64,000 nt of DNA from an uncultured Candidatus Saccharibacteria bacterium (GTDB lineage Bacteria > Patescibacteriota > Minisyncoccia > Phycocordibacterales > UBA9973). Where the stretch lies: positions 205,744-269,743 of the forward strand of contig CAZBZO010000001.1 of the NCBI GenBank assembly GCA_964496425.1. Reading direction: 5' to 3'. The position numbers were made by a program, and so were the translations under genes. The notes below the pieces were generated by a model. The model made no database searches and had not been told where the DNA came from. It saw nothing but the letters and a program-made list of their open reading frames with translations. Shown here one piece after another: positions 46,848 through 61,720 of this stretch; position 1 is the stretch's first letter; every line of letters starts with the position of its first letter.

Positions 46848-48407
46848 TTATTTTACCCCATGTTTTTTATGAATCTCTTCCAGTTCAGCATTTTCTTTTT
46901 CAGCTTGGGCGCGCTTACCAGCTTGGGCAAGTAGTTTCAATGCATCAAATGGCATTTCTCCAAGCTCGAGTACTCGTTTTTCAAGATGTTGTTCATTGTT
47001 GAGATCGGGATTTTCAAGCGCCTCTTCTAAAAGTGCATTGAGTATCATACCGACGCGTGGTCCAGGTTTTTCATCCAGTATTTCCATTACTCGAGAGCCA
47101 TCTATTTTCAGCATGCCGACGGATGTTGGCGCTCGCAACGCTTCTTCAATCATTGCGTGATACTTGCGTAAGCGATATGGTGCTTCTTTTTTCTTCATGC
47201 CAGCGCGATCACATTCTCTGACTTGCATGAGCTCCCAAATGTGTTCCCTTCCAATATTTACTATTGTTCGCCGTACTGCGGAGAGCGTAATAGTTTCAGT
47301 GTCCGAGAAAAACATATGGTAACGGACAAGTTTTGTTACAAGCTCTGATATGTCCTTTGGAAACTTTAGACGTTCCATTATTTTTACTACCATACGAGCG
47401 CCGATAACTTCATGTCCGTAAAAGGTGTACTTTCCTTTGCCACCAGCTTTAGTCCCATCCCAGCGACGGGTGCGAGGTTTCCCTATGTCATGAAACAAGG
47501 CGGTAAGTTTCACATGAAACGGAAAACTCTTCTCGCTCGCATGGCCAAGGGCATGTAAGCAGTGTTCATAGACATCGTAAATATGCTCGCCTTTTTGATC
47601 GCAGCCAATACCTTCTTCCAGTTCCGGGACAATGTATTTAAGAAGTCCAAGTTTCTGCAGCATACCGATCCCAATCATAGGGTTTGGAGAATCCACAATT
47701 TTTATAAATTCATCTCGAATTCGCTCAGAAGATATATTTTTAAGCAAATGCGCATATTGTAAAATAGCCTCCATCGTTTCATGTGAAACGGTAAAATTGA
47801 GCTGACACGCAAATCTTATTGCCCGCATGAGCCGAAGAGCATCTTCTTGAAAACGTTCATCTGGGAGGCCTACTGTGCGAATAATCCCCTTTTCTAAGTC
47901 TTCTTGTCCTTTATACAGGTCAAGTAGCTGTCCTTTAGAAGGACGATAGGCGATAGCGTTTATGGTAAAGTCACGGCGCTTCAAATCGTCTTCAATTTTA
48001 GTGCTAAATGTAACTTTATCCGGATGCCGGCTGTCTGAATAGGTCCCTTCGAGACGATATGGGGTTACTTCAACTATTTGCTTTTGAGAAATATTCGATT
48101 TTAAGGATTCTGTTACATGTGAAACATCATCGGTAATAGTTACACGTGAAACAGTATCATTGGTTTCTTGCACTACAATTACTGTTCCAAACTCATTTTC
48201 ATAGACGGTTTTTTCGAATAAGGCTTGTATTTGTTCTGGGTTGGCGTTTGTTGTGACATCCCAATCTTTCGGTATTTTGCCTAAAATCATATCTCGGACG
48301 CAGCCACCTACAAGAAAAGCCTCAAAACCAGCAGTTTCGAGCGTAGATGTTACACGTGTAACAAAGTCTGGTATGAGGTTATGAGCGATAGGTTGGGTTT
48401 GTTTCAT
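46848..48407 (-). CDS. cca: CCA-adding tRNA nucleotidyltransferase with HD domain
   Basis: 519 aa. The N-terminal pol-beta NTase region FEAFLVGGCVRDMILGKIPKDWDVTT is present. An HD domain (HDIGK) is in the C-terminal half. Confidence 0.9.
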   Translation of the reverse strand: MKQTQPIAHNLIPDFVTRVTSTLETAGFEAFLVGGCVRDMILGKIPKDWDVTTNANPEQIQALFEKTVYENEFGTVIVVQETNDTVSRVTITDDVSHVTESLKSNISQKQIVEVTPYRLEGTYSDSRHPDKVTFSTKIEDDLKRRDFTINAIAYRPSKGQLLDLYKGQEDLEKGIIRTVGLPDERFQEDALRLMRAIRFACQLNFTVSHETMEAILQYAHLLKNISSERIRDEFIKIVDSPNPMIGIGMLQKLGLLKYIVPELEEGIGCDQKGEHIYDVYEHCLHALGHASEKSFPFHVKLTALFHDIGKPRTRRWDGTKAGGKGKYTFYGHEVIGARMVVKIMERLKFPKDISELVTKLVRYHMFFSDTETITLSAVRRTIVNIGREHIWELMQVRECDRAGMKKKEAPYRLRKYHAMIEEALRAPTSVGMLKIDGSRVMEILDEKPGPRVGMILNALLEEALENPDLNNEQHLEKRVLELGEMPFDALKLLAQAGKRAQAEKENAELEEIHKKHGVK

Positions 48408-48419
48408 GTTTAATCTGGG

Positions 48420-48575
48420 AGATCGCCCGCGACTCGAAGTTCGTCGTCACTCACTTTGGTCTGGGCACCGCCTCGTAATCAGATCTGCTGATCTGATATT
48501 ATTCCGGCGTTCGATTCTCCACATCAGCCGATCAGTCGGCTGATTCTACCCGCGCTGCGTTCGCTTTGCGAACTT
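48420..48575 (+). ncRNA. Unclassified structured-RNA-like element, copy A (homolog of 48898-49040)
   Basis: About 70-75% identity to copy B when read in the same sense. Two hairpins are preserved by compensatory changes (48478-48485/48490-48497 and 48523-48531/48536-48544). A conserved GGGCACCGCCTC and a CG-TTCGATTC motif are shared. The 3' tail CTACCCGC can pair with the antisense 3' end of tRNA-Gly. Confidence 0.35.
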
Positions 48576-48579
48576 GTTG

Positions 48580-48650
48580 TGCGGGTAGGGAGAATCGAAC
48601 TCCCGTCTCATCCTTGGCAAGGACGTGTTCTACCACTAAACCATACCCGC
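48580..48650 (-). tRNA. tRNA-Gly (anticodon GCC)
   Basis: The minus-strand sequence GCGGGTATGGTTTAGTGGTAGAACACGTCCTTGCCAAGGATGAGACGGGAGTTCGATTCTCCCTACCCGCA has a perfect 7-bp acceptor stem. The anticodon loop is TTGCCAA and the T-arm is GGGAG-TTCGATT-CTCCC. Confidence 0.9.
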
Positions 48651-48790
48651 AACATTATTTTTTAATATTAAAACGTGCTTATTATATTATTTCTAAGGCC
48701 AAATAGCAATTTCCAAACGAGTCTTATCCTACAAGGATATTATATGATTTTCAAATTTTAGTGTATAATTTTAAACGTTTTATAAAGTTT

Positions 48791-48862
48791 GCGCCCGTAG
48801 TTCAACGGATAGAACACTAGTCTTCGGAACTAGTGATGTGGGTTCGATTCCTGCCGGGCGCA
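48791..48862 (+). tRNA. tRNA-Arg (anticodon TCG)
   Basis: The sequence GCGCCCGTAGTTCAACGGATAGAACACTAGTCTTCGGAACTAGTGATGTGGGTTCGATTCCTGCCGGGCGCA has the acceptor GCGCCCG/CGGGCGC. The anticodon stem-loop is CTAGT-CTTCGGA-ACTAG. An extended -10 TGTATAAT lies about 25 nt upstream. Confidence 0.9.
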
Positions 48863-48897
48863 CAAACAAAAAAAGACCTGCAAGGGTTTTTTTTGTT

Positions 48898-49040
48898 AGT
48901 GCGCCTCGAGTACGACGACTGCTCGTCGTACGGGCAGGAATCGAACGTCGGAACGATGTCATATCAGCAGACATGACCGTGAGGCGGTGCCCAAGCCGAA
49001 CTGAGCGACGGCGAAGTGAGAGCTGCGGGAGATTTCTGTA
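48898..49040 (-). ncRNA. Unclassified structured-RNA-like element, copy B (inverted homolog of 48420-48575)
   Basis: It has the same architecture as copy A. The hairpins in plus coordinates are 48910-48918/48923-48931 and 48958-48965/48970-48977, with fully different but complementary stem sequences. The 3' tail GGCGCAC can pair with the antisense 3' end of tRNA-Arg. An A8/T7-flanked small hairpin lies at 48866-48893. Confidence 0.35.
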
Positions 49041-49342
49041 TGTTCCTGTGATTGAGTACAATCACCTACTGGGTAAGGAAAGATATCCTGCGCAGGTAGA
49101 AATCTAAAAGTACCAACGACGATAGCTCGAGATATTATGCCGGGCATCTCAATTCATTTGTCCTTTATTATTCAAAAAGGCCCTTATTTATCAACAATTT
49201 GGGGATAACTATGTGTACTATGTGCATAAAGGACATATCTTATTTTGTCGGTTTACAAAGCCATATTTGTATAATGTCCTTAATTAACAAGCTTAAATCT
49301 GAAAGACAACCTTTAAAAACGCTTTTTATGTCTTATAAAGTC

Positions 49343-49422: not shown

Positions 49423-49854
49423 ATGCCAAAGGTGTTTACATCAGCATCTCAAAAAACGGGGGAGATCGGAGAGGGTGTGGCTGCCCGATATTTTGAAAAG
49501 CAAGGCTACCGGATCCTTGAACGTAATTTTACTCGGAAATGGGGAGAGATAGATATTGTGGCGGAAAAGGGGATAGGTCAGGGAAGTGAGCTCCATTTTA
49601 TCGAAGTGAAGTCAGTCAGTAGGGATTTGAGTGGGGGAGTTGACGGGGTAGATGAGATCTCTGTCGATCAGTATAAACCGGAAGACAATATGCATCCGTG
49701 GAAGCTTCAGCGTCTGTCGCGCACCATCATGACGTATCTTTTAGAAAAAAATATTCCGGACGAAAAAATCTGGCAGTTTGATCTAGCTTGTGTCTATCTT
49801 GACCTTGTGCACAAAAAAGCCAAGGTGGTAGTGGAAGAAAATATTATTTTGTAG
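49423..49854 (+). CDS. yraN: YraN/UPF0102-family endonuclease-like protein
   Basis: 143 aa with GEGVAARYFEKQGYRILERNFTRKWGEIDIVAEKG...HFIEVKSVSRD, the YraN pattern. Confidence 0.65.
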   Translation: MPKVFTSASQKTGEIGEGVAARYFEKQGYRILERNFTRKWGEIDIVAEKGIGQGSELHFIEVKSVSRDLSGGVDGVDEISVDQYKPEDNMHPWKLQRLSRTIMTYLLEKNIPDEKIWQFDLACVYLDLVHKKAKVVVEENIIL

Positions 49855-50092
49855 TCCTTTTTATCCTCGAGGAAGATCGGGAGATCTGTCGGCAAGGGTG
49901 TCAGTGTTTCCGAGTACCCCGTCCCGCTTTCGCGGGGCGAAGCGAGGAGAGAGATTTTTGAAAACACTAGTGACACGCGTACCGGCAGGTCTCCTGACCC
50001 CAAAGGCAAGGCCTCTGGGTAATTCCTATCAAACCACAACAATCTGTTGCGATCTGAATAAGAAGCCAAAGTCTTACGGGACTTTGGCACGC

Positions 50093-50440
50093 TTAATTTT
50101 CTGGCAGTTCCAGCCAATCGCTTGGTGAAACATCGAGCGTTATTTCGCTCTGGTTAGGCAGTGTGACAAAAATTTGTCCACTACCATCAGAAAACACACG
50201 AAACTGCTCATCGGGAATCTCTTTAACATTTGAGATCCTGCCCTTAAGTCGTTCCGCTTCATTTTTTGCGAGCTTAAGCCAGGCATAAAAAATTTTCATG
50301 CTTAGTCTCACATGTTCGAGTTGTAAAACTTTTACAATTTGCTTTTCCACTGTATATGGCCCTCCGCGGCCGTTTTTAAATGAACAAATTTGAACTCTCT
50401 TGAATCCGCCACAATGTGATGAACTCAACAGAGCTGGCAA
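50093..50440 (-). CDS. Hypothetical protein downstream of the Ubl-conjugation operon
   Basis: 115 aa ORF with no motifs. Confidence 0.35.
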   Translation of the reverse strand: MPALLSSSHCGGFKRVQICSFKNGRGGPYTVEKQIVKVLQLEHVRLSMKIFYAWLKLAKNEAERLKGRISNVKEIPDEQFRVFSDGSGQIFVTLPNQSEITLDVSPSDWLELPEN

Positions 50441-50778
50441 GTAAGATACTTACCAAGTCTGCCTCTCCTCTTATTTTATAAAAAGGAATAATCCCTATCA
50501 GTCCACCAATCATTGATGAACTGAACAAGGATCCTCAATAAATTGAGGATTTCGTTGTATAACCCAACCCCTTGTGACCTTTACATCGTCCAGATGGTAT
50601 ACACTTCCTGCATACTCGAGCACCATTATCAGTAACTTGAAACCCCCGTTTCAACCGACGTATGGTGTCCAACTCGCTTGCTTTTTGTAGCATGCATCCG
50701 AAGATGCAGAGTGACGAAAAACAAGAAACATCTGAAAACTAACTATATGCTAGTCTTTTTAAAACCGGCTAAAACGAT

Positions 50779-51438
50779 TTATTTAAAAATAAAGAGCAAG
50801 CGCTTTTTATCACGCGATACTCCAATTTTTATTACATCATTCTCGAGCACCTTTAGGTACCCGCCCTGCCCGTTATCTTCGGTTTCAGTTCCAGGCTTAG
50901 GTTCCGGTATTGGTGCAGGTGCCGGTGGTTCCGGTTTCCTGTTGATGAGAATTTCATCCCCGTTTTCAAGAACGGTGTTGAGATTTCCCTCTTTACCATC
51001 TACAGTGATGATTTCCTTTTCGGCATCAAATCGGATGCCAGCGATCTGCAAAGCATTGGCTACTGTTCCGTCGCCGGGTTGGGCTTCAGGTTCAGAAGCA
51101 TGCAACAATGCCACAGTGTGGCGTTCACCAGGCACGTGGGCGATGGTCACCAAAAATTGGTTGCCCTTAATCTTGGGTACCAACAAAATAATGTCGCCGT
51201 CGGATACAGGTGTGTCCCAGAGCACCAATGTGATTTTCTCCCCTTCCCGGACCGCGAGTTCGCGGCCGTTCAAAAAAGGAACATCAATCATTTCCTTTCC
51301 ATTAGACCCGTATGGGTCTTTTGAGAAAGTGAAATTGCAAACACTGGCAGCAGTTTGCATCGCTGTTAACACCGTTGCAGGTGTATTAATAACAATTTGT
51401 TTTACGGTGCCAGGCACCTTACCACAAGTTAAATTCAT
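50779..51438 (-). CDS. Tandem beta-grasp (ubiquitin-like) protein with an internal Gly-Gly followed by a C-terminal extension
   Basis: 219 aa. There are two ThiS/MoaD-like repeats that end ...VSDGDIILLVPKIKG and ...LENGDEILINRKPE. A Pro/Ala linker is followed by ...TEDNGQGG at residues 193-196, then a 23-aa tail. It is the last gene of the E2-JAB-E1 operon. Confidence 0.5.
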   Translation of the reverse strand: MNLTCGKVPGTVKQIVINTPATVLTAMQTAASVCNFTFSKDPYGSNGKEMIDVPFLNGRELAVREGEKITLVLWDTPVSDGDIILLVPKIKGNQFLVTIAHVPGERHTVALLHASEPEAQPGDGTVANALQIAGIRFDAEKEIITVDGKEGNLNTVLENGDEILINRKPEPPAPAPIPEPKPGTETEDNGQGGYLKVLENDVIKIGVSRDKKRLLFIFK

Positions 51439-51486
51439 TTTTGACAGTTTTGATTGTGAAAAAAAATTGTGAAAAAATTATTTTGC

Positions 51487-52209
51487 TTATTTCCACCCAT
51501 GAGCCGTAGCCACAATGGGTCTGATGCAGAGCATTTCGCTGCTCGCGTGCTGATCACGTTCCTGTAGTTTTACAACAGGTTTGAAATCAACATTGGAAGC
51601 GAACTTCACCAGTTTGTGACTGGCAAGTCCTGCGATCGTGCTCACTACCGTACTTATGGCACGATAGGTGCAGGGAGACTCTTCAGCCTCACTGTCACCA
51701 TAGAGCGTGCCTTCGTATTCACGGACATCGGTCGGGTCGAGCGGCCGCACTGTGTAAATCGTGCCGAGCTCTGCCCCAAGGCGGGTCTCTACAACCAGAC
51801 TGACATCAAGTTGGTATTTAAGGCTGTTAAGCCAAATCTTCTTTCTTGATGACATGGTATCAGTACAAATGTACACGATACCTTCTAGCTTTTGTGATCC
51901 GTCTACCTTTTCGTTGCGAGCGACAACTTCGACGCCGCAATCACGAGAAAGGATTTTTTTGAGAGCTTCGACTTTGGAAAGCCCCACTTCCTCCAAACCG
52001 TAAATCTGGTTTGGAAGGTTGTGAATTTCCACACTGTCGAAGTCCCATGCGGTGATGTTGCTAACCCCCATCTTCGCTAAGATGAAGGCGATCCAGCTTC
52101 CCGTCGCACCGACGCCGATGATGTGCACCGGCGTGGTGAACTGGGCTGGATCAAACATGTCGAGCTGGCGCCAATAATCCGGCGTCAGTAATCCAGATGC
52201 TGGTCCCAT
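51487..52209 (-). CDS. E1-like ThiF/MoeB-family adenylyltransferase
   Basis: 240 aa with the Rossmann motif VHIIGVGATGSWIAFILAKMGVSNITAWDFDSVEIHNLPNQ and IVYICTDTMSSRKKIW. These match MoeB VLIVGLGGLG...LDFDVV..SNLQRQ and the CTDN region. Confidence 0.8.
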   Translation of the reverse strand: MGPASGLLTPDYWRQLDMFDPAQFTTPVHIIGVGATGSWIAFILAKMGVSNITAWDFDSVEIHNLPNQIYGLEEVGLSKVEALKKILSRDCGVEVVARNEKVDGSQKLEGIVYICTDTMSSRKKIWLNSLKYQLDVSLVVETRLGAELGTIYTVRPLDPTDVREYEGTLYGDSEAEESPCTYRAISTVVSTIAGLASHKLVKFASNVDFKPVVKLQERDQHASSEMLCIRPIVATAHGWK

Positions 52210-52871
52210 GTTTTTTGGTTTTTGGGCCAGTTTTTTTCATGGCCGAAGCCGTGAAGTTGAACTGGCTGGTGAACAATTTTTTTGACTTTCTGCTTGACTT
52301 GGTCGCGGATATCCGCTTCCCGAGTATCGTCATGGGGAAGAATTATTTCCCACGAGACGTCGTTGAAACGTAATCCACGTGCAAAGTCATAAAAAGTAAA
52401 CTCTGCCCTGCCGTGGCGGCCGAAAATCCCGCGGATGAACCAGTCGTTACCGTTGGACAATACGTCCATCTGGATTTCGTCCTGACCCGACGGGGATGTG
52501 CTGTTGCTCGGGTGCACGTGGCCCCAAAACTTCAGCGCGTTTACCTTTTCAATTGCTCCGTTCACCAGGAGCTCGGTTGCCACCTTAGCAATATCCGCAG
52601 GTGACATTGCGGTTTCGGCCACTTCCACTTCCTGCTCGAAGAGCATTACTTCTTCGATGGTGTAGACAGAGCTTATTTTTGAAACAGTTCCCAGCCAGGA
52701 GATTTCCTCCCGACCAGAAGCAGCGGCGATGTAGTACATATCCAGGTACGCCGCCAGGCTGACCTTGATATGGGGTACTGCATAATTGAGCAGTACCGTT
52801 TGGGTTTGAAAGTTATGCGGTCGGAACTTGTCCGCCGCATTTACTTTCGTGAAATTATTGAGATATTCCAC
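52185..52871 (-). CDS. JAB/MPN+ (JAMM) metallopeptidase
   Basis: 228 aa. The JAMM motif is exact: E in GREEISWLG, then FWGHVHPSNSTSPSGQD, which fits H-x-H-x7-S-x2-D. Confidence 0.8.
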   Translation of the reverse strand: MEYLNNFTKVNAADKFRPHNFQTQTVLLNYAVPHIKVSLAAYLDMYYIAAASGREEISWLGTVSKISSVYTIEEVMLFEQEVEVAETAMSPADIAKVATELLVNGAIEKVNALKFWGHVHPSNSTSPSGQDEIQMDVLSNGNDWFIRGIFGRHGRAEFTFYDFARGLRFNDVSWEIILPHDDTREADIRDQVKQKVKKIVHQPVQLHGFGHEKNWPKNQKTWDQHLDY

Positions 52872-52918
52872 TGTGTCCGCCCTCCCAGGCAGTTTTTGAT
52901 TTTTGAACTATTTATTTT

Positions 52919-54100
52919 TTACCACTTCAAGTCGTCTTGCGACGGACCTTCTGTAGTTTGAGTTTGTAGTAACTCATCCGCCTTCGGCCACCAGTAAATT
53001 CCCTTACCAGCACTGTCGTCGACATTCACGCTTTTTAGGAACTGAATGGCCAAAATGGCTACTACCGAGTATTGGTACTCTGCGATCAGCTGTGGTAGAG
53101 CCGTCGAGATGTTGCCGAGACAAGCGTCGCCACTTGCCTGTACGTGTGGGTGATGATGGTTGTAGGAGGTGTTACCCTCGAAACCACTTGGTCGGGTGTG
53201 GCCAGGACCTTTACCTTGGTTGGTCAAGTTAAAAAACTTGATACCACCGTTGATAAAAATCTCGATCCGAAATTCACCAATCATATATTTCACCTTGTCA
53301 TGAGTGATATATATCATATCGGTGAAAACTTTAATCACTCCATCCCCAGCCTCGATTTTTTTCACATCCTGTATCGTCAGGAATTTTTCAAATTCCTTTC
53401 TGTAGCCTTCTTCCGCATCGGGCCGCGCTTTTTCAAGCTGCACGAGCTTTTGCTCAGCACCTTTAGTCTCGCGTACCTTGGTCACCAACTCGTCCTGCAA
53501 TTTTTTTATGGCTGTAAAACCCTCATCAATTGCTTTTTTTGTACCTGCCAGCATCTTGTCAAAGCGCTGTGAACAGGCTTTGACGAATGCCTCGCGGCTT
53601 CGGTTCCTCACTTCTTCAGCGCGCTTTTGTTCACGCGCTAATTTTTCTGCAGGGTCTTTTATTTCTATTTCTTTTACCACCTCCTGCAATAGATGGCGAA
53701 AAATTTTGTCGTCTGTATCCTTTCCATGGTGGTATACATCATGGTGAATATATAAGACACTCTCGCCGATAAGCTCGGCAACTGAATATTCTCCGTCGTA
53801 AAAGCTTTTTCCTTCCCCGGAGGGAGAAAAAGCTTCGTCACGGCAATTGACATCGTACCCCCAAATTTTTTGAGGGGGATTGATGTTTTTCCCCCCCCGT
53901 GGCGAACTCCAGATAAAAATCTGGAAATTCATTGTTTCTTTTTTTGATGCCGCACTACCATGTGGCATGGAAACTTCTAACCCTTTTCCATTTAGAGTTA
54001 GAGTGGGGAGGAGAATCTCCTCTACTGCTTTTTGGGCAAGGAGAAGTCCAGCGTCTTGCCATGAAAGGAATTTCACCTCTCCAATGTTTGCGTTGCTCAT
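52919..54100 (-). CDS. Protein with a coiled-coil N-terminal half and a C-terminal E2 (UBC-fold)-like domain
   Basis: 393 aa. The C-terminal ...SYNHHHPHVQASGDACLGNISTALPQ aligns with the UBC active site HPNV-x-x-x-G-x-ICLDIL, placing the catalytic Cys in GDACLGN. Confidence 0.55.
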   Translation of the reverse strand: MSNANIGEVKFLSWQDAGLLLAQKAVEEILLPTLTLNGKGLEVSMPHGSAASKKETMNFQIFIWSSPRGGKNINPPQKIWGYDVNCRDEAFSPSGEGKSFYDGEYSVAELIGESVLYIHHDVYHHGKDTDDKIFRHLLQEVVKEIEIKDPAEKLAREQKRAEEVRNRSREAFVKACSQRFDKMLAGTKKAIDEGFTAIKKLQDELVTKVRETKGAEQKLVQLEKARPDAEEGYRKEFEKFLTIQDVKKIEAGDGVIKVFTDMIYITHDKVKYMIGEFRIEIFINGGIKFFNLTNQGKGPGHTRPSGFEGNTSYNHHHPHVQASGDACLGNISTALPQLIAEYQYSVVAILAIQFLKSVNVDDSAGKGIYWWPKADELLQTQTTEGPSQDDLKW

Positions 54101-55132
54101 TTTACAAAAGTTTTATACCCCTGCAGCATCAATCGGCCTTGGGGCGGTGAAAAAATTTGTTTTTGCTCAGCGTCTGATTGACGTAGACATTTTCTGTGAC
54201 CGACGGGCCACAGATCAATCTGAGCTTCGTCGGTCCGCACATGTCGGATGTCAATCTTGCACCGTTAGCACACGGTACAACATGTCTAAGTTTGTAACCC
54301 GGCTCCCCGCTCTGAAGATCAATCGCCCCAGTCGGACCAGGTTACTCCCTTCCATACAACAGTTTGTAAGTCTCTCTATGCACTGTCTGGTACGCGTAGA
54401 GATTACTTGTCGACTTCTCTTTTAACGTCGGCCGACAGACGACGTTACGTGCCTGGTGGAATACCACCTAAGCCTGATTTGTTTTTCATGGTGTCCTCTT
54501 TTTTGGTGAAAGCGAATGCCGATCATTCAGCATCCAGTTTCACCAAAAGAGACTAGCCACGTGCTCAAGCCACCCAATATCTGTTTCGCACATTTTGTGC
54601 AACAATATTTGTGTTAAGCTATTTAATTTTTTACCCCAATCGATCCATGAAACTATTTCGTGAACCGAAGAAGGGTGACAACATTTCGTTGTCACATGAT
54701 TAACCCGATTAACCATTGACCCCTTTGTAGCTGTTCTGCCGTATTTCAGACGAGGTTGCTGTCCTCTGTCGTTGTGGTGGCTATTGTGTATCCGTACACA
54801 AACTTCACCTTTTATCCTCACGCAACGTCGTGAGCTTTTTGCGAAAGATCAGAAGCGAGTTCTGATCAAGACAAAACCGCTTTTCAGCGCTTTTGTATGA
54901 CCAGATCTCTTCTTTCCCTGCTCCTTTTTTACAGGAGCAATTTTCTCCACCACCTGACGTGGCTTCGAAAATTGGGAAAGATCGATCTTTCCAAGGACTG
55001 TCACGCCCGGAAGCGTGGCAGTCCTGTGACTCATCATTTCCATATTTTTTGGAAATTTAAAGTCAAAACTATTCCCCGCTTCTCGCACGGTGGATATCAC
55101 GCCAAGTTTGTGTCATTGGGGACAGGGGAATT

Positions 55133-55558
55133 TCACATAAGAAATTTTTTCCCAGCAAACCGCAGATATTCTGCGAATGTTTTGGGATGAATTTTTTTAA
55201 GATCCCTCAACGGGATCTGCCAAAGTAAATCTTCCACATGGGGGCTATTTTCCCCATATGGCCTGACAAGGGTTTCCCACTTTGCCCCCGGATATCGGGA
55301 TAATAAGTATCCCGATTTCATAGAGCGCCCGAGGTATATTTGAAAAAATATCCCCCCTCCCGTATTAAAGTGGAGGGTAAGGGTAACTTGTGAGATTTTA
55401 CTTCCCACAACGGTAATCCCGTTGTGGATTTTTTGTTTTTCCTGCAGAAGGAGGATCTCCTCCTCTGCTGAGAGTGCGGGGACAATGTCCTCGCACTCTT
55501 GCTTGATCCGTTCAATTTCATTTTGAAATTGAAGGAAAATAAATTTCGCTGTTCTCAT
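55133..55558 (-). CDS. Hypothetical small protein (doubtful)
   Basis: 141 aa ORF in an otherwise gene-poor, compositionally atypical stretch. No motifs. Confidence 0.25.
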   Translation of the reverse strand: MRTAKFIFLQFQNEIERIKQECEDIVPALSAEEEILLLQEKQKIHNGITVVGSKISQVTLTLHFNTGGGIFFQIYLGRSMKSGYLLSRYPGAKWETLVRPYGENSPHVEDLLWQIPLRDLKKIHPKTFAEYLRFAGKKFLM

Positions 55559-56627
55559 TTTTTTTGATTTTAGGTTAAGAAATACTCGAATACCGAATAC
55601 CGAATCACTTCAGTCGCCGAGTATTTCTTAACCGAGTGGAAAATGAAATCCTTCAATAATATTCAGGATAAAAAACCACTCTATTCACCTCACCAATTGC
55701 CTGATGGGGCTTATGTGGGGAGCATACAACTGGCCCGAGGCAAAACCTCGAGAGTACCCGAGGAATTGCCTCGAGATGCCCCGCACAATATTTTATTTTC
55801 AACGATCACCATCTTGCCCGATCCCGATCTCCCGATCTAGATCAGCTCTCAGTATTTATATCCGCAAATTTTCATTTATAGATATCTCTACTGAATTCCT
55901 TCGCAAGAAGGAGTACGGAGGTAAAGTAATGCCTAACTCTCTCCTCCATACTTCTTGTTACGAATCTCTCCCTTGCCTCGCCGTAGCTTGTTTAGATATT
56001 TGTGGGCTCGCCTCGCCATAGCTTTAGCGAAGGCGGGTCACGCTCCTTATAACGAAATACGGTAGCGTAGTCTTTTTCAACTCTCCCCTCAGAGAATTTC
56101 ACAAAGACATTTCTGGAAACGAAAGTGGGTTAATCTTTCGCATCCAGTCGATCTCTTTGCGAGCCCCTCACTAAATTTTAAAATTTAGTGAGGGGCGAGA
56201 ACGGTGTGCACGTGATCTGTAGTGAGACTCGGGTTTGCGGCCTATGCCTTACTACAACGTGCGGTGCAAACGGAAGCAGGGAAGACTGTTTTTGTGGATA
56301 TACGCTCTTTGCAAACGGCGATTTTTGGCTCCCCTGACCATTCACGTATATCGCAATCTTCCTACTATCCCCTCAAAGAACTCTCTCCGTCTTTGGCCTT
56401 GCGACCTCTTTGACTTTCTTGCTAATAGTATAGCATCTTTAAACTGTTTTGTCAACAATACAGATCAATTATATTTAAAATTGTTATTTTTCTCAATAAA
56501 ATAAGGCTAGAATAGTTATGCACATTGTCATATTTGCGTGACAAAACACAATAATGTAGAATTCTAGGGTGAATCAGTTGCTGTATTAAAAATCTAAAAT
56601 CCCTGCCTGCGCAGGCAGATAGAATCT

Positions 56628-57380
56628 ATGCAAAGTGAAAACATCCTAATCCAAGCCGGACTCTCAGAAGAACAAGCCCTCGTTTACGAGGCTTTGCTTG
56701 AAAAGGGTCCGCAAAAAGCCTCGCCGCTATCGAGCTGGACGGGGATAAAGCGCTCTTTGATCTATAAGATTTTGGAACAGCTGGAAACTATGGGGCTGGT
56801 GGAGAAAAAAGGGGGACCGGGGACAGTGGCAGTATTTTCGCCACTTCATCCTTCACTTCTCATGCACGACCTGGAGCGCAAAGAAAAGGAGCTGGCGCTC
56901 GCAAAAGATATGCTCACGCACTCCTTGGGCACGCTTTCATCGAAATACAATCTGATTGCCGGAAAACCCAATGTGCAGTTTTATGAGGGGAAGGAAGCGA
57001 TCGCACAAGTGACCAATGAATTTCCAAAAAATGAAAAAGAAATTCGCCAGTTTATAAATATCGGACGAGCTATGGAACAATTTCCAGATGAAACTGTTGG
57101 CCATCTCCATCAGCGTATAAAGGCCGGTATCTCTAAAAGAATGATCGTGCCGGATACTGAGCCTAATCGTGCATATGTGAAAAAGGGAAGTGAGCTCACT
57201 GAATTTAGATTTATTAAAAATGTGCTTCCGACCGCTGTCCAAATATATGATGATAAAGTGAGTATGCTGACCCTTACTCCTGAAAAAGTAGTCGGGCTGG
57301 TGATCGAGGACAGTGCTATTTCAGAAACGTTTAAAATGCTCTTCGACGAGTATTGGGAGCGTGTAGCAAAACCGCTGTAA
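56628..57380 (+). CDS. TrmB-family transcriptional regulator
   Basis: 250 aa with an N-terminal winged HTH MQSENILIQAGLSEEQALVYEALLEKGPQKASPLSSWTGIKRSLIYKILEQLETMGLVEKK. A 16-bp perfect palindrome CTGCCTGCGCAGGCAG lies at 56603-56618, just upstream. Confidence 0.75.
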   Translation: MQSENILIQAGLSEEQALVYEALLEKGPQKASPLSSWTGIKRSLIYKILEQLETMGLVEKKGGPGTVAVFSPLHPSLLMHDLERKEKELALAKDMLTHSLGTLSSKYNLIAGKPNVQFYEGKEAIAQVTNEFPKNEKEIRQFINIGRAMEQFPDETVGHLHQRIKAGISKRMIVPDTEPNRAYVKKGSELTEFRFIKNVLPTAVQIYDDKVSMLTLTPEKVVGLVIEDSAISETFKMLFDEYWERVAKPL

Positions 57381-57382
57381 AA

Positions 57383-59575
57383 TTAGGCTGCTTGTTGCAG
57401 TCGATCTTTTTGCCATTTAGTGATTTTAATAACTTCTACACCAAGTGGAGTATAGTCAGAATTTGTTCCAATCTCCTCAAACCCGAATGATTCTCTGTAT
57501 GTGTCGCGCATCGGGTTTTGGGCGTATACGTCGGCTTCGAAGTCACCTTCGCTTGTATATTCTTCGATTACTTTGCGTAAAAGTTCGGTGCCGACACGCG
57601 AACCTTTGATGAGTGGATTTACGTTGAACGATGCTCCGTAAAAGGATCCGTCCGCGCGGCGCAGAACGCGCATAGATGCAATAACTTCGCCTTTGAGCTT
57701 GACGGTATCGATGACTTCATTTTCCTTTGGATTTTCGAGCGCGTCTTTTTGAGTACCAAGCCACTTTTCTCGGAGAGCTTCGGGGTATTGTTTTGTATTT
57801 TCTATCGCCATAGCAATGATCTCATTTTTATTCTGCTCTGACATCAGGGAAGCATTTTCGTGAGAAAGCTCGATATCCTTAAAATCTTCGAACGAGAATG
57901 TCTTTTGTTCTACAAGTGATTTACAAGCAGCCGCGAAGACAATAGTGGAAGTTTTGATGTCAGCCATTTTTTGCTCCAATTCCTTTCCAAGCGCGATACA
58001 ATCTTCTCCGGTGCATTTTTGTGCCGGTGCAGCATATATTTCAAGTAATTTTTTTCCGCGTAGTAGCAGATGCTCTTTTGTTTTATCAATGAGTTCCGGC
58101 GTCATTTTCGCAGACAGATTTTCTTGCATGTATGTTTCGACTGAGCTCACTTCGTCAATAATTTCCCCATACTTTTTAAAAAGTATTTCCGCGGATTCTG
58201 TCGGAAGCTTTTCTCCAAGGGTGAGGATCTTGTCGCCCATTGATTCATCACCGGACATTGAGAGGAATGATTTGAGGTAATTTTGGTTAATCTCCTGTTT
58301 GTTACCCTTAAGCTGACCTTCTAATTTTGTGAATGTCGCTTCATCTGATTCTGACAAAAATCGTAAAAATTGTATCTGCTCACGTAGGTACAAGTCCTCA
58401 AGATGTATACCTAGTCTTTTGTTGACGTAGTCTCTGATTTCTGGACTATGAAGGACTTTTATTAAATGCGAAAAATCTTCTTTTCCTAATGGATTGAAGA
58501 TTTTGTTTTCAGTGAGACCCTCGTAGCTTTGCAACTCGATGCTTCTTTTTGATGTATTTTTTATTTCTGTAGTCTCCACCAGTGCATATGGAGTGTAGGT
58601 TGCTCTCGAAATGATACTTCCATATTCTTTTGAAACTTTGGAATATAAGATGTTTTCCAAATCAGGAACGATTGAATTTGAATTAAAAAATTCCGTGCTC
58701 TCTTTTGTTACCTTTTCTCTAATCATACTGATTTCATTATTAACGGGGTATGGTTTGTCATCATCCTCGGAATCTGGGGTAGAATAGACACCTCCATCAA
58801 ACTCGCTCACAATTCCAGTATTATTCTCTATTTTTTTCAATTCGAAATCTGAAATAAACTTGACGAGTGGACTCTTTTCATTTTTACGAAGTTCTAGTAG
58901 AAGTTTAACAACTGCTTTATATGCTGGTTCTGCCCACTCTCCATTCCCATGTGCCCACAATGCAGTAGTGGAAAGCTGCTTAATTGCGCTAATTTTGCTC
59001 GAACTACTCAGATTTTTTACATTTTCCTTAAATTTTTCTATACGCTCCCCATTTGCCCACGAAAGATCAAGGGTGAGTTCTCCTTGAGTACTGACAATAT
59101 TTCTTAGACCGTACGTTTCATTTATTTTTGAAAATGCAATGAGTTGGTAGATACGGTCAGTTTTTAAATATTCTAGCGCGTCGGGCGAACGACCGAAATA
59201 CAAATTATTAAGGTTTTCGTAAAAACTTTGCGCCTTGTTTTTTTCGTAATCCTTTTTGAAAATGAGCTTATTGCAAAACTCAATGAGTTCGTCAGCGAAG
59301 ATTTTTACCAATCCTGTTTGTTCCTTAGATATATATTGGGTTTCGTTCGGGAATAATTTTTCAACCATTTCATGCATCGGGTCATTGAAAAAGCCTCTGG
59401 ATGTATCGGAATTATTACTCCATAGTTCCTGTATGTGCGTTTTAACCCACGCACTAAAAAATTTCTTCTTTTCTTGAGGTGTCATTTCTAGATTTTCAGA
59501 TGGTTTTGAAATACTAGGTTCACCGACAGGAGATGGCTGATCTGCAAATTTCATACCTCGATTGTACACCCCCAC
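57383..59575 (-). CDS. Large hypothetical protein with a C-terminal GNAT acetyltransferase domain
   Basis: 730 aa. The C-terminus has ...FNVNPLIKGSRVGTELLRKVIEEY...YAQNPMRDTYRESFGFEEIG, matching the GNAT motif A and beta-strand pattern. It is convergent with the TrmB gene, with only 2 bp of spacing. Confidence 0.55.
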   Translation of the reverse strand: MGVYNRGMKFADQPSPVGEPSISKPSENLEMTPQEKKKFFSAWVKTHIQELWSNNSDTSRGFFNDPMHEMVEKLFPNETQYISKEQTGLVKIFADELIEFCNKLIFKKDYEKNKAQSFYENLNNLYFGRSPDALEYLKTDRIYQLIAFSKINETYGLRNIVSTQGELTLDLSWANGERIEKFKENVKNLSSSSKISAIKQLSTTALWAHGNGEWAEPAYKAVVKLLLELRKNEKSPLVKFISDFELKKIENNTGIVSEFDGGVYSTPDSEDDDKPYPVNNEISMIREKVTKESTEFFNSNSIVPDLENILYSKVSKEYGSIISRATYTPYALVETTEIKNTSKRSIELQSYEGLTENKIFNPLGKEDFSHLIKVLHSPEIRDYVNKRLGIHLEDLYLREQIQFLRFLSESDEATFTKLEGQLKGNKQEINQNYLKSFLSMSGDESMGDKILTLGEKLPTESAEILFKKYGEIIDEVSSVETYMQENLSAKMTPELIDKTKEHLLLRGKKLLEIYAAPAQKCTGEDCIALGKELEQKMADIKTSTIVFAAACKSLVEQKTFSFEDFKDIELSHENASLMSEQNKNEIIAMAIENTKQYPEALREKWLGTQKDALENPKENEVIDTVKLKGEVIASMRVLRRADGSFYGASFNVNPLIKGSRVGTELLRKVIEEYTSEGDFEADVYAQNPMRDTYRESFGFEEIGTNSDYTPLGVEVIKITKWQKDRLQQAA

Positions 59576-59675
59576 TCCTCAAATGCCCATAGGTTTTCAT
59601 ATTTTGTGTGACAAAAGGGGACAGGAAGTACCACATGAAAGTCTTTGCGTTCGGGCTAGTGGTTATTGCTAAAGA

Positions 59676-60119
59676 TTGGGAAAGCCTATAGAATGCGGGC
59701 GAACTCAAATCTACCGAACTATGCAGAAAAATGTAACAGTACTTTTCGTAGGCTACAAAGGCTACGAGCCAAATTGGGGAGTATTTGCCCAAGCCCTACT
59801 TCGGAAAACTTCCTTGGTAAAAATTGAGGCAGTAATTTTTGATCCAACGATAGGATATTTAGTTTCGATGATTGATCGAAATCCTGCTGTTGGGGTGATT
59901 TTTGACCCTGAGATTCCGGTTGATATTCTCGAAGAGTATCTTCGGAACAGATATACAGAGAAAAAAATTACATTGACGTATGGCCGGCCCAGCGTAATGA
60001 ACGGGAAAAGGCAGAAGTTGCAGGATCTGGGTAGGGATACTTTTGAAATGTATGCCACTGATAGTGAGGTAGTACTTCGTCTCACCAGTAACGAACTCAT
60101 TGATGCTTTGACGCACTGA
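59676..60119 (+). CDS. Hypothetical protein
   Basis: 147 aa ORF. The terminator hairpin AAGGCGGGAAATA...TATTTCCCGCCTT plus a T-run lies at about 60126-60165. Confidence 0.4.
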   Translation: MGKPIECGRTQIYRTMQKNVTVLFVGYKGYEPNWGVFAQALLRKTSLVKIEAVIFDPTIGYLVSMIDRNPAVGVIFDPEIPVDILEEYLRNRYTEKKITLTYGRPSVMNGKRQKLQDLGRDTFEMYATDSEVVLRLTSNELIDALTH

Positions 60120-60199
60120 ATATTAAAGGCGGGAAATAGAAATATTTCCCGCCTTGCTTTTTTATACTGGCTTGCGATCATAGAGAAAACACTTCTTTT

Positions 60200-60649
60200 A
60201 TGAAAGCAATAACAATTACAGGCACTGATCACGGACCTTCTTCGACTGAAGGTATTGTGATCGTTAAAAATGAGTTTGATACATATTGTTTCCGAGTTGG
60301 GGATGAGAAAACATATGAACAGGTGAATTTTAATAAGATGTGCCCTCCTGAAATTGAATTACGAGATGATCTTAAAATAATCACAAGCATTCAATTTGTT
60401 CGAAGGGATAATCCCACAACTGGAAAATATTTTTTCCTGGTTGTAGAGCCAAAAAATCCAAACGAAGAAGGAATGGTCGTTCTCCTCAACAATGCACATA
60501 TCCTTAAAGGAATAAGCTCTAACTACAAAATTCTCATAGAAATTAACACGTCGTACCTTATCTTACTCCTTAGAAAACATAGAGTGCGATTCAAGATTGG
60601 GGAAGAGGTATGGATTATCCGTAATTCTCTCGTCTCGAGAGAATCCTGA
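60200..60649 (+). CDS. Hypothetical protein
   Basis: 149 aa ORF followed by a strong 13-bp-stem terminator at 60671-60699. Confidence 0.45.
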   Translation: MKAITITGTDHGPSSTEGIVIVKNEFDTYCFRVGDEKTYEQVNFNKMCPPEIELRDDLKIITSIQFVRRDNPTTGKYFFLVVEPKNPNEEGMVVLLNNAHILKGISSNYKILIEINTSYLILLLRKHRVRFKIGEEVWIIRNSLVSRES

Positions 60650-60670
60650 CCCAAGCGTAATCTCGTATCT

Positions 60671-60699
60671 CCGTAGTTTTATAAACTACGGAGATTGTT
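60671..60699 (+). terminator. Rho-independent terminator
   Basis: ATCTCCGTAGTTT-TAT-AAACTACGGAGAT is a 13-bp perfect stem. It is followed by TTGTTTTAT. Confidence 0.7.
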
Positions 60700-60753
60700 T
60701 TATATACGAAGTATGTTAGTATAGAAGGGTTTTTAAGGCGCAACGGGTTAATT

Positions 60754-60958
60754 TCGGTAGCCCTAAAGGATTGCGATTTTAACAATCCAAGTACGGATTA
60801 AAAAATCGGTAGCCCTAAAGGATTGCGATTTCTACAGTTTCTTTTGAAACTAAGAAATCGGGAATATCTCGGTAGTATGCATGTTTTGGGGATATTTTTC
60901 ATTGTTAATTTAACATCTAGGTCGGGGCGTAGTATATCGGTAGTATGCATGTTTTGGG
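60754..60958. repeat. Two pairs of direct repeats sharing a TCGGTAG core (tRNA-fragment-like)
   Basis: TCGGTAGCCCTAAAGGATTGCGATTT occurs at 60754-60779 and 60806-60831. TCGGTAGTATGCATGTTTTGGG occurs at 60869-60890 and 60937-60958. The second copy lies inside the tRNA-Pro-like element. Confidence 0.6.
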
Positions 60959-60993
60959 AACATGAGGGCCGAGTTCGATTCTCGGCGCCCCGA
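60923..60993 (+). pseudogene. tRNA-like element with a Pro (TGG) anticodon arm and no regular D-stem (probable tRNA pseudogene or remnant)
   Basis: The acceptor is CGGGGCG/CGCCCCG, extendable to a 13-bp pairing CTAGGTCGGGGCG/CGCCCCGACCTAG. The anticodon arm is CATGT-TTTGGGA-ACATG. The T-arm is CCGAG-TTCGATT-CTCGG. The D-arm region AGTATATCGGTAGTAT is a direct repeat rather than a helix. Confidence 0.4.
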
Positions 60994-61089
60994 CCTAGGT
61001 GTGAAAAGAAAAATATCCGGATGTTTGGGGGAACATCCGCGGAAATTTCGAGAAGAAATTTATGAGGGCCGAGTTTGCCCCTACTCCTT

Positions 61090-61160
61090 GCGGGATTAGT
61101 TAAATGGTATAACTCTAGTTTTCCAAACTAGTGTCGGGGGTTCGATTCCCCCATCCCGCA
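61090..61160 (+). tRNA. tRNA-Gly (anticodon TCC)
   Basis: The sequence GCGGGATTAGTTAAATGGTATAACTCTAGTTTTCCAAACTAGTGTCGGGGGTTCGATTCCCCCATCCCGCA has the acceptor GCGGGAT/ATCCCGC. The anticodon arm is CTAGT-TTTCCAA-ACTAG. The T-arm is GGGGG-TTCGATT-CCCCC. Confidence 0.9.
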
Positions 61161-61310
61161 CATAAAACACTTAGCCCGGATGCATAGCATTCGGGTTTTA
61201 GTGTTTTACTGCGGTATGGGAATCGAAAGACGGAGGCCGCGAAGCCGTCCGAAGGACGTGGTCGAGTCGGGGTCGAGAAATTTTTATGAAATAAAAAATA
61301 TTCGTAACCT

Positions 61311-61326
61311 ATTCCCCCATCCCGCA
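61311..61326 (+). repeat. 16-nt direct repeat of the tRNA-Gly(TCC) 3' end (att-like)
   Basis: ATTCCCCCATCCCGCA at 61311-61326 duplicates 61145-61160. The about 150-bp segment between the copies is GC-rich and hairpin-rich (for example AAACACTtagCCCGGATGCataGCATTCGGGttttAGTGTTT). Confidence 0.55.
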
Positions 61327-61349
61327 ATTTCCCAAGCAAAAAGCCGCCG

Positions 61350-61380
61350 GATAGGTTGCGGCGACTTTTTGACTCTCGAG
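61350..61380. terminator. Bidirectional terminator downstream of hup
   Basis: AAAAAGCCGCCggataggttGCGGCGACTTTTTG has a stem flanked by A5 and T5. Confidence 0.55.
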
Positions 61381-61447
61381 AAAATTCTTTGAGCTATTTT
61401 GCTTCTCGCTTTGCTCGAAGTAAATAATCCTATTTTCTCTAACGGAA

Positions 61448-61720
61448 TTATTTAACAGCGTCTTTGAGTGCTTTTGCTGCGCGAAACTTCGGTACGCGTG
61501 TTGCTGCGACCTTGACCGCTTCACCAGTTTTTGGATTGCGAGCCATGCGAGCAGCGCGGTTCTTCACTGAGAAGATACCCAAGCCTGCGATTGAAACTTC
61601 ACCACCTTTCTTCAAAGTGCCGATAATAGCTTCGATCAAACCGTCCACAACCTCTTCAGCGCCTACTTTGGTACCTCCGATTTTGCCATGGACCCATTCT
61701 ACCAATGCTTGTTTGTTCAT
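61448..61720 (-). CDS. hup: HU/IHF-family DNA-binding protein
   Basis: 90 aa with the HU signature ...GEVSIAGLGIFSVKNRAARMARNPKTGEAVKVAATRVPKFRAAKALKDAV. Confidence 0.9.
   Translation of the reverse strand: MNKQALVEWVHGKIGGTKVGAEEVVDGLIEAIIGTLKKGGEVSIAGLGIFSVKNRAARMARNPKTGEAVKVAATRVPKFRAAKALKDAVK

Follow-up and report, generated by a model that had tools for sequence, protein, structure and literature searches.

tRNA genes are classic landing sites of mobile DNA, whose known footprints are large islands with direct repeats, and the T-loop and the anticodon arm are typical sublocations of integrases in these genes. Here we describe a region of repeats around two tRNA genes, tRNA-Pro(UGG) and tRNA-Gly(UCC), in a 64,000-nt stretch from an uncultured Candidatus Saccharibacteria bacterium (GenBank assembly GCA_964496425.1, contig CAZBZO010000001.1, positions 205,744 to 269,743; hereafter the window, with positions counted from its first letter). 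The region (60700-61330) had been flagged in an initial annotation, made from the letters alone, as a hotspot of tRNA fragments and possible integration scars. At about even odds (a probability near 0.5), we read its repeats as tRNA-derived pieces of small, non-coding structures that look inserted at tRNA genes and fall into two kinds: a nested arrangement, with a working tRNA-Pro gene between the decaying halves of an older copy, and a structured element, which we call R1, placed after tRNA genes. Both layouts recur at tRNA genes, and R1 is strictly tied to tRNA 3′ ends, always on the strand of the tRNA.

Several described systems invite comparison. In the tRNA-dependent lysogeny of actinobacteriophages, a tRNA gene is split and the insert brings along a complete tRNA that matches it in isoacceptor type (Guerrero-Bustamante and Hatfull, 2024; PMC10865867). 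Archaea and algae have disrupted, split and permuted tRNA genes, for which there is a model of origin by mobile elements (PMC3293823; PMC4390854). Tandem arrays of trnF pseudogenes in plastid genomes place partial tRNA copies beside the functional gene (PMC3786074). We also considered attachment-site (att) duplications at tRNA genes, as left by islands, prophages and integrase-less, cis-mobilisable elements; miniature inverted-repeat transposable elements (MITEs); and permuted genes of transfer-messenger RNA (tmRNA). In our literature searches, neither nested tRNA genes in bacteria nor a motif like R1 turned up.

Intact tRNA genes and their repeats

Four tRNA genes of the window were called by ARAGORN and Rfam alike; two of them lie within the flagged region, followed by a terminator:

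60923-60993, + strand: functional tRNA-Pro(UGG) gene (ARAGORN; Rfam 58.6 bits, gathering score 29)
61090-61160, + strand: functional tRNA-Gly(UCC) gene (ARAGORN; Rfam 72.6 bits, gathering score 29)
61163-61208, + strand: intrinsic terminator of the tRNA operon (stem at 61173-61197 and a T-run; extends to an 18-nt palindrome)

We compared the region with 11 related loci, recovered with a tRNA-Pro DNA pattern and with homologues of the CCA-adding enzyme (designated by L numbers below; L130 is the closest relative). Their backbone order is CCA enzyme, tRNA-Arg(TCG)/tRNA-Gly(GCC), YraN, tRNA-Pro(UGG), often tRNA-Gly(UCC), and HU. The tRNA genes read in these loci do not encode CCA.

The tRNA-Pro and the tRNA-Gly of the region are both genuine, intact genes. 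Each scores above the threshold of the tRNA family (Rfam RF00005) with a four-arm cloverleaf and has a syntenic orthologue: the tRNA-Pro is 100% identical to the gene of L006, and the tRNA-Gly is identical to the L130 gene at 72 of 72 positions. The initial annotation had recognised the tRNA-Gly as bona fide, as we do, and had described the tRNA-Pro as a remnant lacking a D-stem. The latter description does not hold. The D-stem has four base pairs (GUAU/GUAU, two G·U and two Watson-Crick pairs in the ARAGORN drawing), and the same D-arm recurs identically in the tRNA-Pro of 10 related genomes; since the Rfam score is far above the gathering score and the D-stem is complete, this is a normal tRNA, the outcome that the annotation itself had named as counting against a remnant. 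The tRNA-Gly is probably co-transcribed with the tRNA-Pro, because it begins 5 nt past a 3′ remnant of a tRNA-Pro copy (described below).

The direct repeats reported upstream of the tRNA-Gly are present and far beyond chance: an exact 26-nt repeat, TCGGTAGCCCTAAAGGATTGCGATTT, at 60754 and 60806 (31 nt when extended, at 94%), and an exact 22-nt repeat, TCGGTAGTATGCATGTTTTGGG, at 60869 and 60937, with 0 matches expected in shuffled sequences for either. The inverted repeat said to enclose the tRNA-Pro was recovered as two overlapping alignments, one of 14 nt at 93% (60890-60903/61005-61018) and one of 29 nt at 83% (60901-60929/60986-61014). The last 16 nt of the tRNA-Gly, ATTCCCCCATCCCGCA, are repeated exactly downstream (61145 and 61311), again as reported. 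Two repeats had escaped the initial annotation, namely ATGAGGGCCGAGTT, which covers the tRNA-Pro variable loop and T-stem, at 60962 and 61062, and a degenerate stretch at 61211-61228 that copies the tRNA-Gly 3′ end in reverse complement. No further fragment copies that would mark an island boundary were found elsewhere in the window. Overall, the initial annotation was largely right in what it observed, wrong about the remnant, and partly right in its interpretation.

The nested tRNA-Pro gene

Among the related loci, nine orthologous tRNA-Pro genes are clean: partial copies are lacking, and an extended -10 motif precedes the gene, which leads into either a terminator or the following gene; the motif, TGnTA(G/T)(T/A)(A/G)T, ends 9-22 nt before the gene in these nine. 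Four tRNA-Pro genes are nested: the gene in the window and three others, which come from 2 of the 11 related genomes (one in L004 and two in L130, here L130a and L130b). In the three nests with a UGG gene (window, L004, and L130a), the motif lies 200, 98 and 161 nt 5′ of the working gene, respectively, and stands before the outer 5′ piece; because the promoter motif of the family precedes that piece, the outer copy occupies the ancestral position. The window shows the following layout around its working gene:

60714-60722, + strand: family-typical extended -10 motif TGTTAGTAT, 200 nt 5′ of the working tRNA-Pro
60754-60836, + strand: two tandem 52-bp units, D1a (60754-60784) and D1b (60806-60836), identical over 26 nt
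60775-60863, + strand: two stem-loops (60775-60807 and 60823-60863), closed by CGATTTY/RAAATCG
60858-60895, + strand: decayed 5′ half of an older tRNA-Pro copy, 22 nt equal to tRNA-Pro positions 15-36
60890-60929, + strand: left arm of the inverted repeat (tRNA-Pro leader), pairing with the trailer
60986-61018, + strand: right arm of the inverted repeat (tRNA-Pro trailer), pairing with the leader
61018-61061, + strand: twin hairpins hp1 (61018-61039) and hp2 (61043-61061), fold z = -4.5
61062-61084, + strand: decayed 3′ half of an older tRNA-Pro copy, 14 nt equal to tRNA-Pro positions 40-53

In the upstream half, the acceptor and D-stem part is degraded and the stretch from the D-loop through the anticodon loop is intact; the downstream half keeps the variable loop and the 5′ strand of the T-stem, has lost the T-loop, and ends with the 3′ strand of the acceptor. 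Each D1 unit begins with a D-loop-like TCGGTAG, followed by CCCTAAAGGATTGCGATTTY, and includes a stem-loop. The D1 core is conserved upstream of the L130 tRNA-Pro (25 of 28 nt; 0 of 2000 shuffles were as good), where the homologue keeps its stem through a T-A to C-G change and carries an unrelated apical hairpin. By eye, hp1 resembles a tRNA-Pro anticodon arm with a GGG-type loop.

The 50-nt flanks of the working gene in the window form a duplex (z = -3.6; 1 of 300 shuffles was as good). Flanks of this length are significantly complementary at all four nested genes (z = -2.6 to -7.3); no such complementarity was found at the nine clean tRNA-Pro genes (z = -0.5 to +1.4), nor at the other tRNAs in these loci. 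In L004, a near-intact 5′ half (acceptor and D-arm intact, first 23 nt identical to the inner gene) lies upstream and a nearly intact 3′ half (21 nt identical to the inner gene) lies downstream, and the ~190 bp between them hold a complete tRNA-Pro in a 29-nt inverted repeat (90%). A two-hairpin layout stands at the matching place (L004 2044-2091; z = -3.2), with an hp1 sequence that differs from that of the window. In L130b, two halves with mutually complementary acceptor strands (CGGGCTG/TAGCCCG) enclose a complete tRNA-Pro(CGG); compared with the inner gene, these outer acceptor strands, and the outer T-stem (CCGAG/CTCGG), show compensated changes, and the outer halves retain the remnant of a CGG anticodon loop, the same isoacceptor as the inner gene. 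In view of the compensated changes, the inner and outer genes are diverged copies, not the product of a recent self-duplication. Joined outer halves were called as a tRNA in 17 of 378 joins for L004 and 47 of 528 for L130b at the default threshold, and a low-threshold control with mismatched halves also gave calls, which makes joining a weak test.

The nest thus far described resembles tRNA-dependent lysogeny in that the resident tRNA gene is broken in the region of its anticodon and not rebuilt, and an inner tRNA of the same isoacceptor can replace it; this combination is seen in the window (decayed), in L004 and in L130b. It differs in that the halves enclose neither a prophage nor an integrase nor attP arms, the inserts spanning just 100-190 bp, and in that the inner tRNA is clamped by an inverted repeat and the position of the split varies from case to case. 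By analogy, the nested tRNA-Pro can be said to follow the functional logic of tRNA-dependent lysogeny without a prophage. With the split tRNAs of Archaea and algae the nests share the interruption in the anticodon region, the 5′ fragments before a complete copy, and a long helix formed from the interruption; unlike those genes, they are found in a bacterium, have halves that decay instead of being spliced, and enclose a whole tRNA (the intron mode of ARAGORN made no intron call at the tRNA-Pro). The plastid trnF arrays also repeat partial tRNA copies beside a functional gene, much as the D1 and D2 units do here, but those are simple tandem duplications, whereas in the nests the 5′ pieces lie upstream and the 3′ pieces downstream, and the window has structured spacers and inverted repeats besides.

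Two side observations concern the tRNA-Pro genes. The D-arm, GGTAGTAT (60869-60878 and 60937-60946), contains the hexamer TAGTAT, which is also the -10 element of the family, and the tRNA-Pro promoter of L006 itself reads GGTAGTAT; because of this shared hexamer, the retained 5′ fragments could act as promoters for the inner gene. In L130 (8200-8400 and 8402-8701, read on the minus strand), an MscL gene lies between the tRNA-Pro(UGG) and the nested tRNA-Pro(CGG), whereas the window has neither an MscL gene nor an intact second tRNA-Pro.

The R1 element

The second structure follows the operon terminator. Three copies are present in the window (scores are from covariance models):

61203-61328, + strand: R1, after the tRNA-Gly(UCC) (113.6 and 98.8 bits)
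48412-48533, - strand: second R1 copy, from the tRNA-Gly(GCC) to the cca start codon (96.4 and 85.5 bits)
48921-49049, + strand: third R1 copy, past the tRNA-Arg(TCG) and its terminator (92.8 and 89.8 bits)

R1 is non-coding and 105-130 nt in size. At 61203-61328, it consists of the reverse-complement copy of the tRNA-Gly 3′ end (61211-61228), a GC-rich core, an AT-rich hairpin, and the direct copy of the tRNA 3′ end (61311-61326); the 16-nt repeat that the initial annotation had called att-like is the 3′ arm of R1. The junction reads GAATCGAA-NG-N-CGGAR and leads into the core, and a GAGGCGGKGYC block is common to the copies. The segment of about 150 bp bounded by the 16-nt repeat has spurious open reading frames (ORFs) only. 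The initial annotation had called it GC-rich, which applies to the core (61229-61277, 71% GC) and not to the segment as a whole (61162-61310, 46%). It had also called it strongly structured, which single-sequence folds do not show (z = -1.6 and -1.3) and covariation across homologues supports.

A first covariance model was trained on four copies, and the score of the copy in L133 comes from a second. The R1 architecture also follows tRNAs in L144, L133, and L138, and copies outside the training set were found in L144 (439-559, past tRNA-Arg, 46.9 bits), in L132 (1522-1628, past tRNA-Arg and ahead of the cca start codon, 31.6 bits) and in L133 (9860-9991, from tRNA-Arg to the cca start codon, 34.1 bits with the second model). 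In total there are eight matches in 282 kb of related loci, from four genomes, all eight directly 3′ of a tRNA and co-oriented with it; unrelated metagenome contigs, 571 kb in all, gave 0 matches. The arms covary and track the adjacent tRNA, or are unrelated to it in L132 and L133. Helix 1 comprises eight modelled pairs, with an acceptor-like extension to 16-20 nt. Standard pairs fill 91.4% of the pair cells, compared to 70% in shuffles (0 of 500 as good); slid controls gave 33-47%. Of 18 pairs, 15 have changes on both sides, and four helices are maintained by compensatory changes. These results favour the last of the alternatives offered in the initial annotation, a very small mobile or structured RNA element, in the form of a conserved family with covarying helices. 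R1 matched no family in Rfam release 15 when 60600-61460 and 48300-49200 were scanned with E up to 5-10 (tRNAs and chance-level matches only), and known self-cleaving ribozymes likewise gave no match.

Empty sites are seen in relatives. The spacer from tRNA-Arg to cca is only 10-14 nt long in five relatives, and in L130 the identical tRNA-Gly is followed by the terminator only. A direct repeat of the tRNA 3′ segment bounds R1 in the window (16 nt exact), in L133 (21 nt) and in L144 (17 of 18). The copy at 61203-61328 shares 63% identity with the L144 copy and 41-49% with the other two copies of its own genome, so that the genomes share two subfamilies. Those other two copies form a 99-nt inverted repeat (76% complementary) around the divergent tRNA-Gly(GCC)/tRNA-Arg(TCG) pair, the second copy ending 5 nt ahead of the cca start codon, and this tRNA pair is inverted relative to cca when compared to 10 relatives; to judge from the sequences, R1 copies evidently promote rearrangement. 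We also observed hairpins of 23-31 nt that split the reverse-complement arm at the boundary of its acceptor-like and T-stem-like parts (48906-48931 and 48521-48544 in the window, 8642-8664 in L133, and ~6650-6685 in L138); they belong to the same size class as hp2 (61043-61061) of the nest.

The resemblance to att duplications lies in the direct repeat from the T-loop to the 3′ end that bounds inserted DNA downstream, in the empty sites of relatives, and in a variable hotspot at which a relative carries a recombinase-bearing element. Unlike att-bounded DNA, the bounded segment here is about 150 bp, free of genes, with a conserved core of covarying helices; there is an extra reverse-complement tRNA end, and the same core stands after three different tRNAs. 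Measured as an integrative element, R1 has a bounding direct repeat and an empty site, and no recombinase was found in the bounded segment or among the larger upstream ORFs scanned with Pfam. The "classic signature" of integration into a tRNA 3′ end that the initial annotation had proposed would fit the direct repeat and the empty sites, and leaves the reverse-complement copy unexplained.

Like a MITE, R1 is short, non-coding, closed by terminal inverted repeats, present in several copies per genome (three in the 64-kb window), patchy among relatives, and tied to a local inversion, here that of the tRNA-Gly(GCC)/tRNA-Arg pair. In contrast to a MITE, it lacks constant termini, showed no target-site duplication at the L132 insertion, has no known autonomous partner, changes its outer repeat with the adjacent tRNA, and keeps a strict place and orientation after tRNA genes. 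A likeness to permuted tmRNA genes is found in the order of a T-arm with the acceptor 3′ strand, a linker hairpin and an acceptor 5′-like strand, in the motif GAAUCGAA (compare GGAUUCGA), and in the GC-rich CGAGGCGG. We reject the identification of R1 as a permuted tmRNA on its Rfam score (17.5 bits, threshold 47) and on its copy number, since the 64-kb window has three copies and the ordinary tRNA that each one matches is not the same; ARAGORN called no tmRNA. As read from the sequence, the acceptor-like helix shows G3-C70 in place of a G3·U70 pair; no search aimed at a tag reading frame was made.

Proposed origin of the structures

The best reading of the locus is one of small non-autonomous elements at a tRNA recombination hotspot, by a mechanism that we infer as follows. 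A resident tRNA-Pro at the normal promoter position would have been split in its anticodon arm, and its decaying outer halves (60858-60895 and 61062-61084) would now bracket ~165 bp that carry the working tRNA-Pro, clamped by the inverted repeat of its leader and trailer, and the two hairpins. Since the insert supplied a replacement tRNA-Pro, the disruption of the resident gene was presumably harmless, and the inner gene, as the sole tRNA-Pro(UGG) now left at the locus, could no longer be lost. The D1 units, of 52 bp each, may be older debris of the same nesting process. R1 sits after the operon terminator; in the helix that closes it, the last 16-20 nt of the tRNA occur twice, the reverse-complement version pairing with the direct one. 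Both structures may have arisen by duplicative insertion at tRNA genes, for which candidate routes are a recombinase acting in trans, a larger element deleted to a stub, template switching at hairpins, and recombination. The tRNA-matching arms could be kept identical to the adjacent gene by gene conversion or by a mechanism that copies its target.

Several results weigh against this reading. The sample is small (12 genomes, four nests, and eight R1 copies), and the alignment in which the R1 pairs were counted had been fitted to the model. No recombinase or transposase was found by Pfam in or beside either structure among the larger upstream ORFs, those beyond HU not having been scanned. No target-site duplication is visible when the R1 insertion in L132 is set against the empty sites, and the outer arms of R1 vary from copy to copy with the adjacent tRNA, unlike the fixed termini of a classical MITE. 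Joining the outer halves in the window gave no tRNA call, as they are too decayed. The spacers of the window and L004 nests show no significant sequence similarity (a shared GGAAATTT...AAATTT may be chance), and the tRNA-Pro split of the window and of L004 falls 3′ of the anticodon loop, that of L130b 5′ of it; given dissimilar spacers and differing splits, one conserved element or one site-specific mechanism cannot be claimed for the nests.

It is possible, if unlikely, that the structures are att scars: large integrase-bearing elements, such as prophages or islands, would have entered the tRNA-Pro anticodon arm and the tRNA-Gly T-loop and then been nearly all deleted, leaving behind attL/attR duplications and, at the tRNA-Pro, their own replacement tRNA. 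The direct copy past the tRNA-Gly indeed runs from the T-loop to the 3′ end, the tRNA-Pro is split in its anticodon arm, and elements of tRNA-dependent lysogeny can split a tRNA and supply one of the same isotype (PMC10865867). The neighbourhood agrees as well. The interval from YraN to HU is highly variable among relatives, from ~0.5 kb (L145) to ~11.5 kb (window), and in one relative (L134-L137; e.g., L135 1-9000) an element directly 3′ of the tRNA-Pro and its terminator carries a large serine recombinase (Resolvase, Recombinase, and Zn_ribbon_recom domains), together with two further proteins, one AAA_25 and one AAA_14/DUF4143, and numerous small ORFs. The variable interval and this element beside the tRNA-Pro make the site a genuine hotspot, as the initial annotation had suspected, to which the absence of the R1 segment from L130 may be added. 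As scars, however, the nests would have to have been trimmed to 100-190 bp four times independently, and ~120 nt with a conserved, covarying core would have to have been left in eight R1 copies; a tRNA end copied in reverse complement is not a product of ordinary integration, one core is common to R1 at three different tRNAs, and no integrase remnant was seen. Scans of viral contigs with the tRNA-Pro 5′ segments and the tRNA-Gly 3′ end returned no matches, and the 16-mer of the 3′ junction returned four chance matches without tRNAs. BLAST of 60700-61340 against a phage database found generic tRNA similarity only, and a metagenome scan for ATGAGGGCCG N{82,112} ATGAGGGCCG yielded 119 unrelated coding repeats, none with a tRNA.

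We consider it improbable that R1, and possibly also the tRNA-Pro leader and trailer, is a functional RNA that mimics the acceptor/T-arm half, either as a tRNA trailer or as a leader of the cca mRNA, with the reverse-complement arm pairing alternatively with the tRNA 3′ end or the direct arm and so controlling 3′ processing, termination or cca expression. The four compensated helices, the placement of all eight copies on the strand of the tRNA, and the lack of encoded CCA in the tRNA genes of these loci would fit such a role, and so would the three copies directly 5′ of the cca start codon (48412-48533 in the window, and those in L132 and L133), which follow hairpins without a T-run, and the layout like that of a permuted tmRNA gene (a weak match to the tmRNA_permuted family, E = 0.31). 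Nevertheless, R1 is missing from most relatives, including the closest, and five genomes have nothing but the 10-14-nt spacer, so R1 is dispensable. The copy at 61203-61328, placed behind a strong terminator and opposite the convergent HU gene, has nothing there to regulate, and no Rfam family matches. The counts of G·U and A·C cells (7 and 4) show no clear strand asymmetry and are uninformative.

For the tRNA-Pro part alone, an old tandem array of tRNA-Pro paralogues (UGG, CGG, and GGG) may have decayed by deletions, with no insertion involved, which also seems quite unlikely. L130 retains two tRNA-Pro genes (UGG and CGG) in the interval, hp1 in the window looks like the anticodon arm of a GGG-type tRNA-Pro, and plastids have partial tRNA pseudogene arrays beside a functional gene (PMC3786074). 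Decay by deletion, however, does not account for upstream pieces that are always 5′ halves and downstream pieces that are always 3′ halves, for the outer pieces of L130b, which share one acceptor stem and anticodon and differ from the inner gene, or for inverted repeats that are specific to the flanks of nested genes. Except for a -10-like motif, the spacer ahead of the inner gene does not reproduce the promoter region, and the nine clean loci, which have an intact outer gene and no inner one, stand beside nests of different ages.

An assembly artefact or chance repeats, suggested by Logan contigs (SRR10036058) that break at 61089 and 61118, at or in the tRNA-Gly, is refuted by two independent assemblies that reproduce the sequence exactly (a Logan contig covering 56200-61118 and an NCBI contig covering 60902-61924, each 100% identical to the window), by the shuffles with 0 expected long repeats, and by homologous layouts in other genomes. 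The repeats are thus no assembly duplication, which the initial annotation had named as a case that would be fatal to its claim. The breaks probably reflect a branch of the Logan graph at a tRNA-Gly identical to that of L130. Assembly GCA_013558375.1 holds both a 1-kb contig identical to the window and a second Paceibacteria genome (L130) with the identical tRNA-Gly.

The surroundings of the two structures add some observations of their own. The CCA-adding enzyme gene (46848-48407, minus strand) has its best matches, at 60-70% identity, where named, in Candidatus Paceibacterota/Parcubacteria. We place the bacterium in the Paceibacteria, within the candidate phyla radiation. The HU gene in the flanking region has a Pfam Bac_DNA_binding match. 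The YraN/UPF0102 gene (49423-49854), a predicted PD-(D/E)XK-type nuclease, adjoins the tRNA cluster in all related loci. Between it and the tRNA-Pro promoter lie ~11 kb in the window (49855-60700), compared to <0.3 kb in at least three relatives (L006, L130, and L134), with no tRNA fragment found at the left edge of this segment and no recombinase among those of its ORFs that were scanned. The segment holds a ThiF/E1-like protein (51487-52209), a TrmB regulator, a 730-aa protein with a C-terminal GNAT domain, and hypothetical proteins; the weak PADLOC E1-E2 matches of the ThiF/E1-like protein were the sole outcome of a defence-system scan of this neighbouring island, and the neighbours of that protein (219, 228, and 393 aa) have no Pfam matches. 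Within it, ~2.5 kb (54100-56600) have ORFs of at most 141 aa, whichever strand is read, and gave no Rfam match at the gathering threshold.

The footprints at this locus are tiny, gene-free and structured, and they are found in a minimal-genome bacterium. Such fragments risk being mistaken for pseudo-tRNAs or att sites in annotation, and it is exactly here that metagenome assemblies break, owing to identical tRNAs. A bolder view, which we hold to be doubtful, is that R1 represents a new tRNA-linked class that copies the acceptor/T-arm end in both directions, either a mobile, target-copying element or a functional mimic, and that the nested tRNA-Pro genes are "selfish" replacement cassettes. If R1 is mobile, it would represent an insertion mechanism that copies its target; if it is functional, it may be a tRNA mimic tied to CCA addition, in a host whose tRNA genes were read here without an encoded CCA. 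Similarly, if the nested genes are selfish cassettes, such a cassette would split a resident gene of its own isoacceptor and thereby become indispensable to the bacterium.

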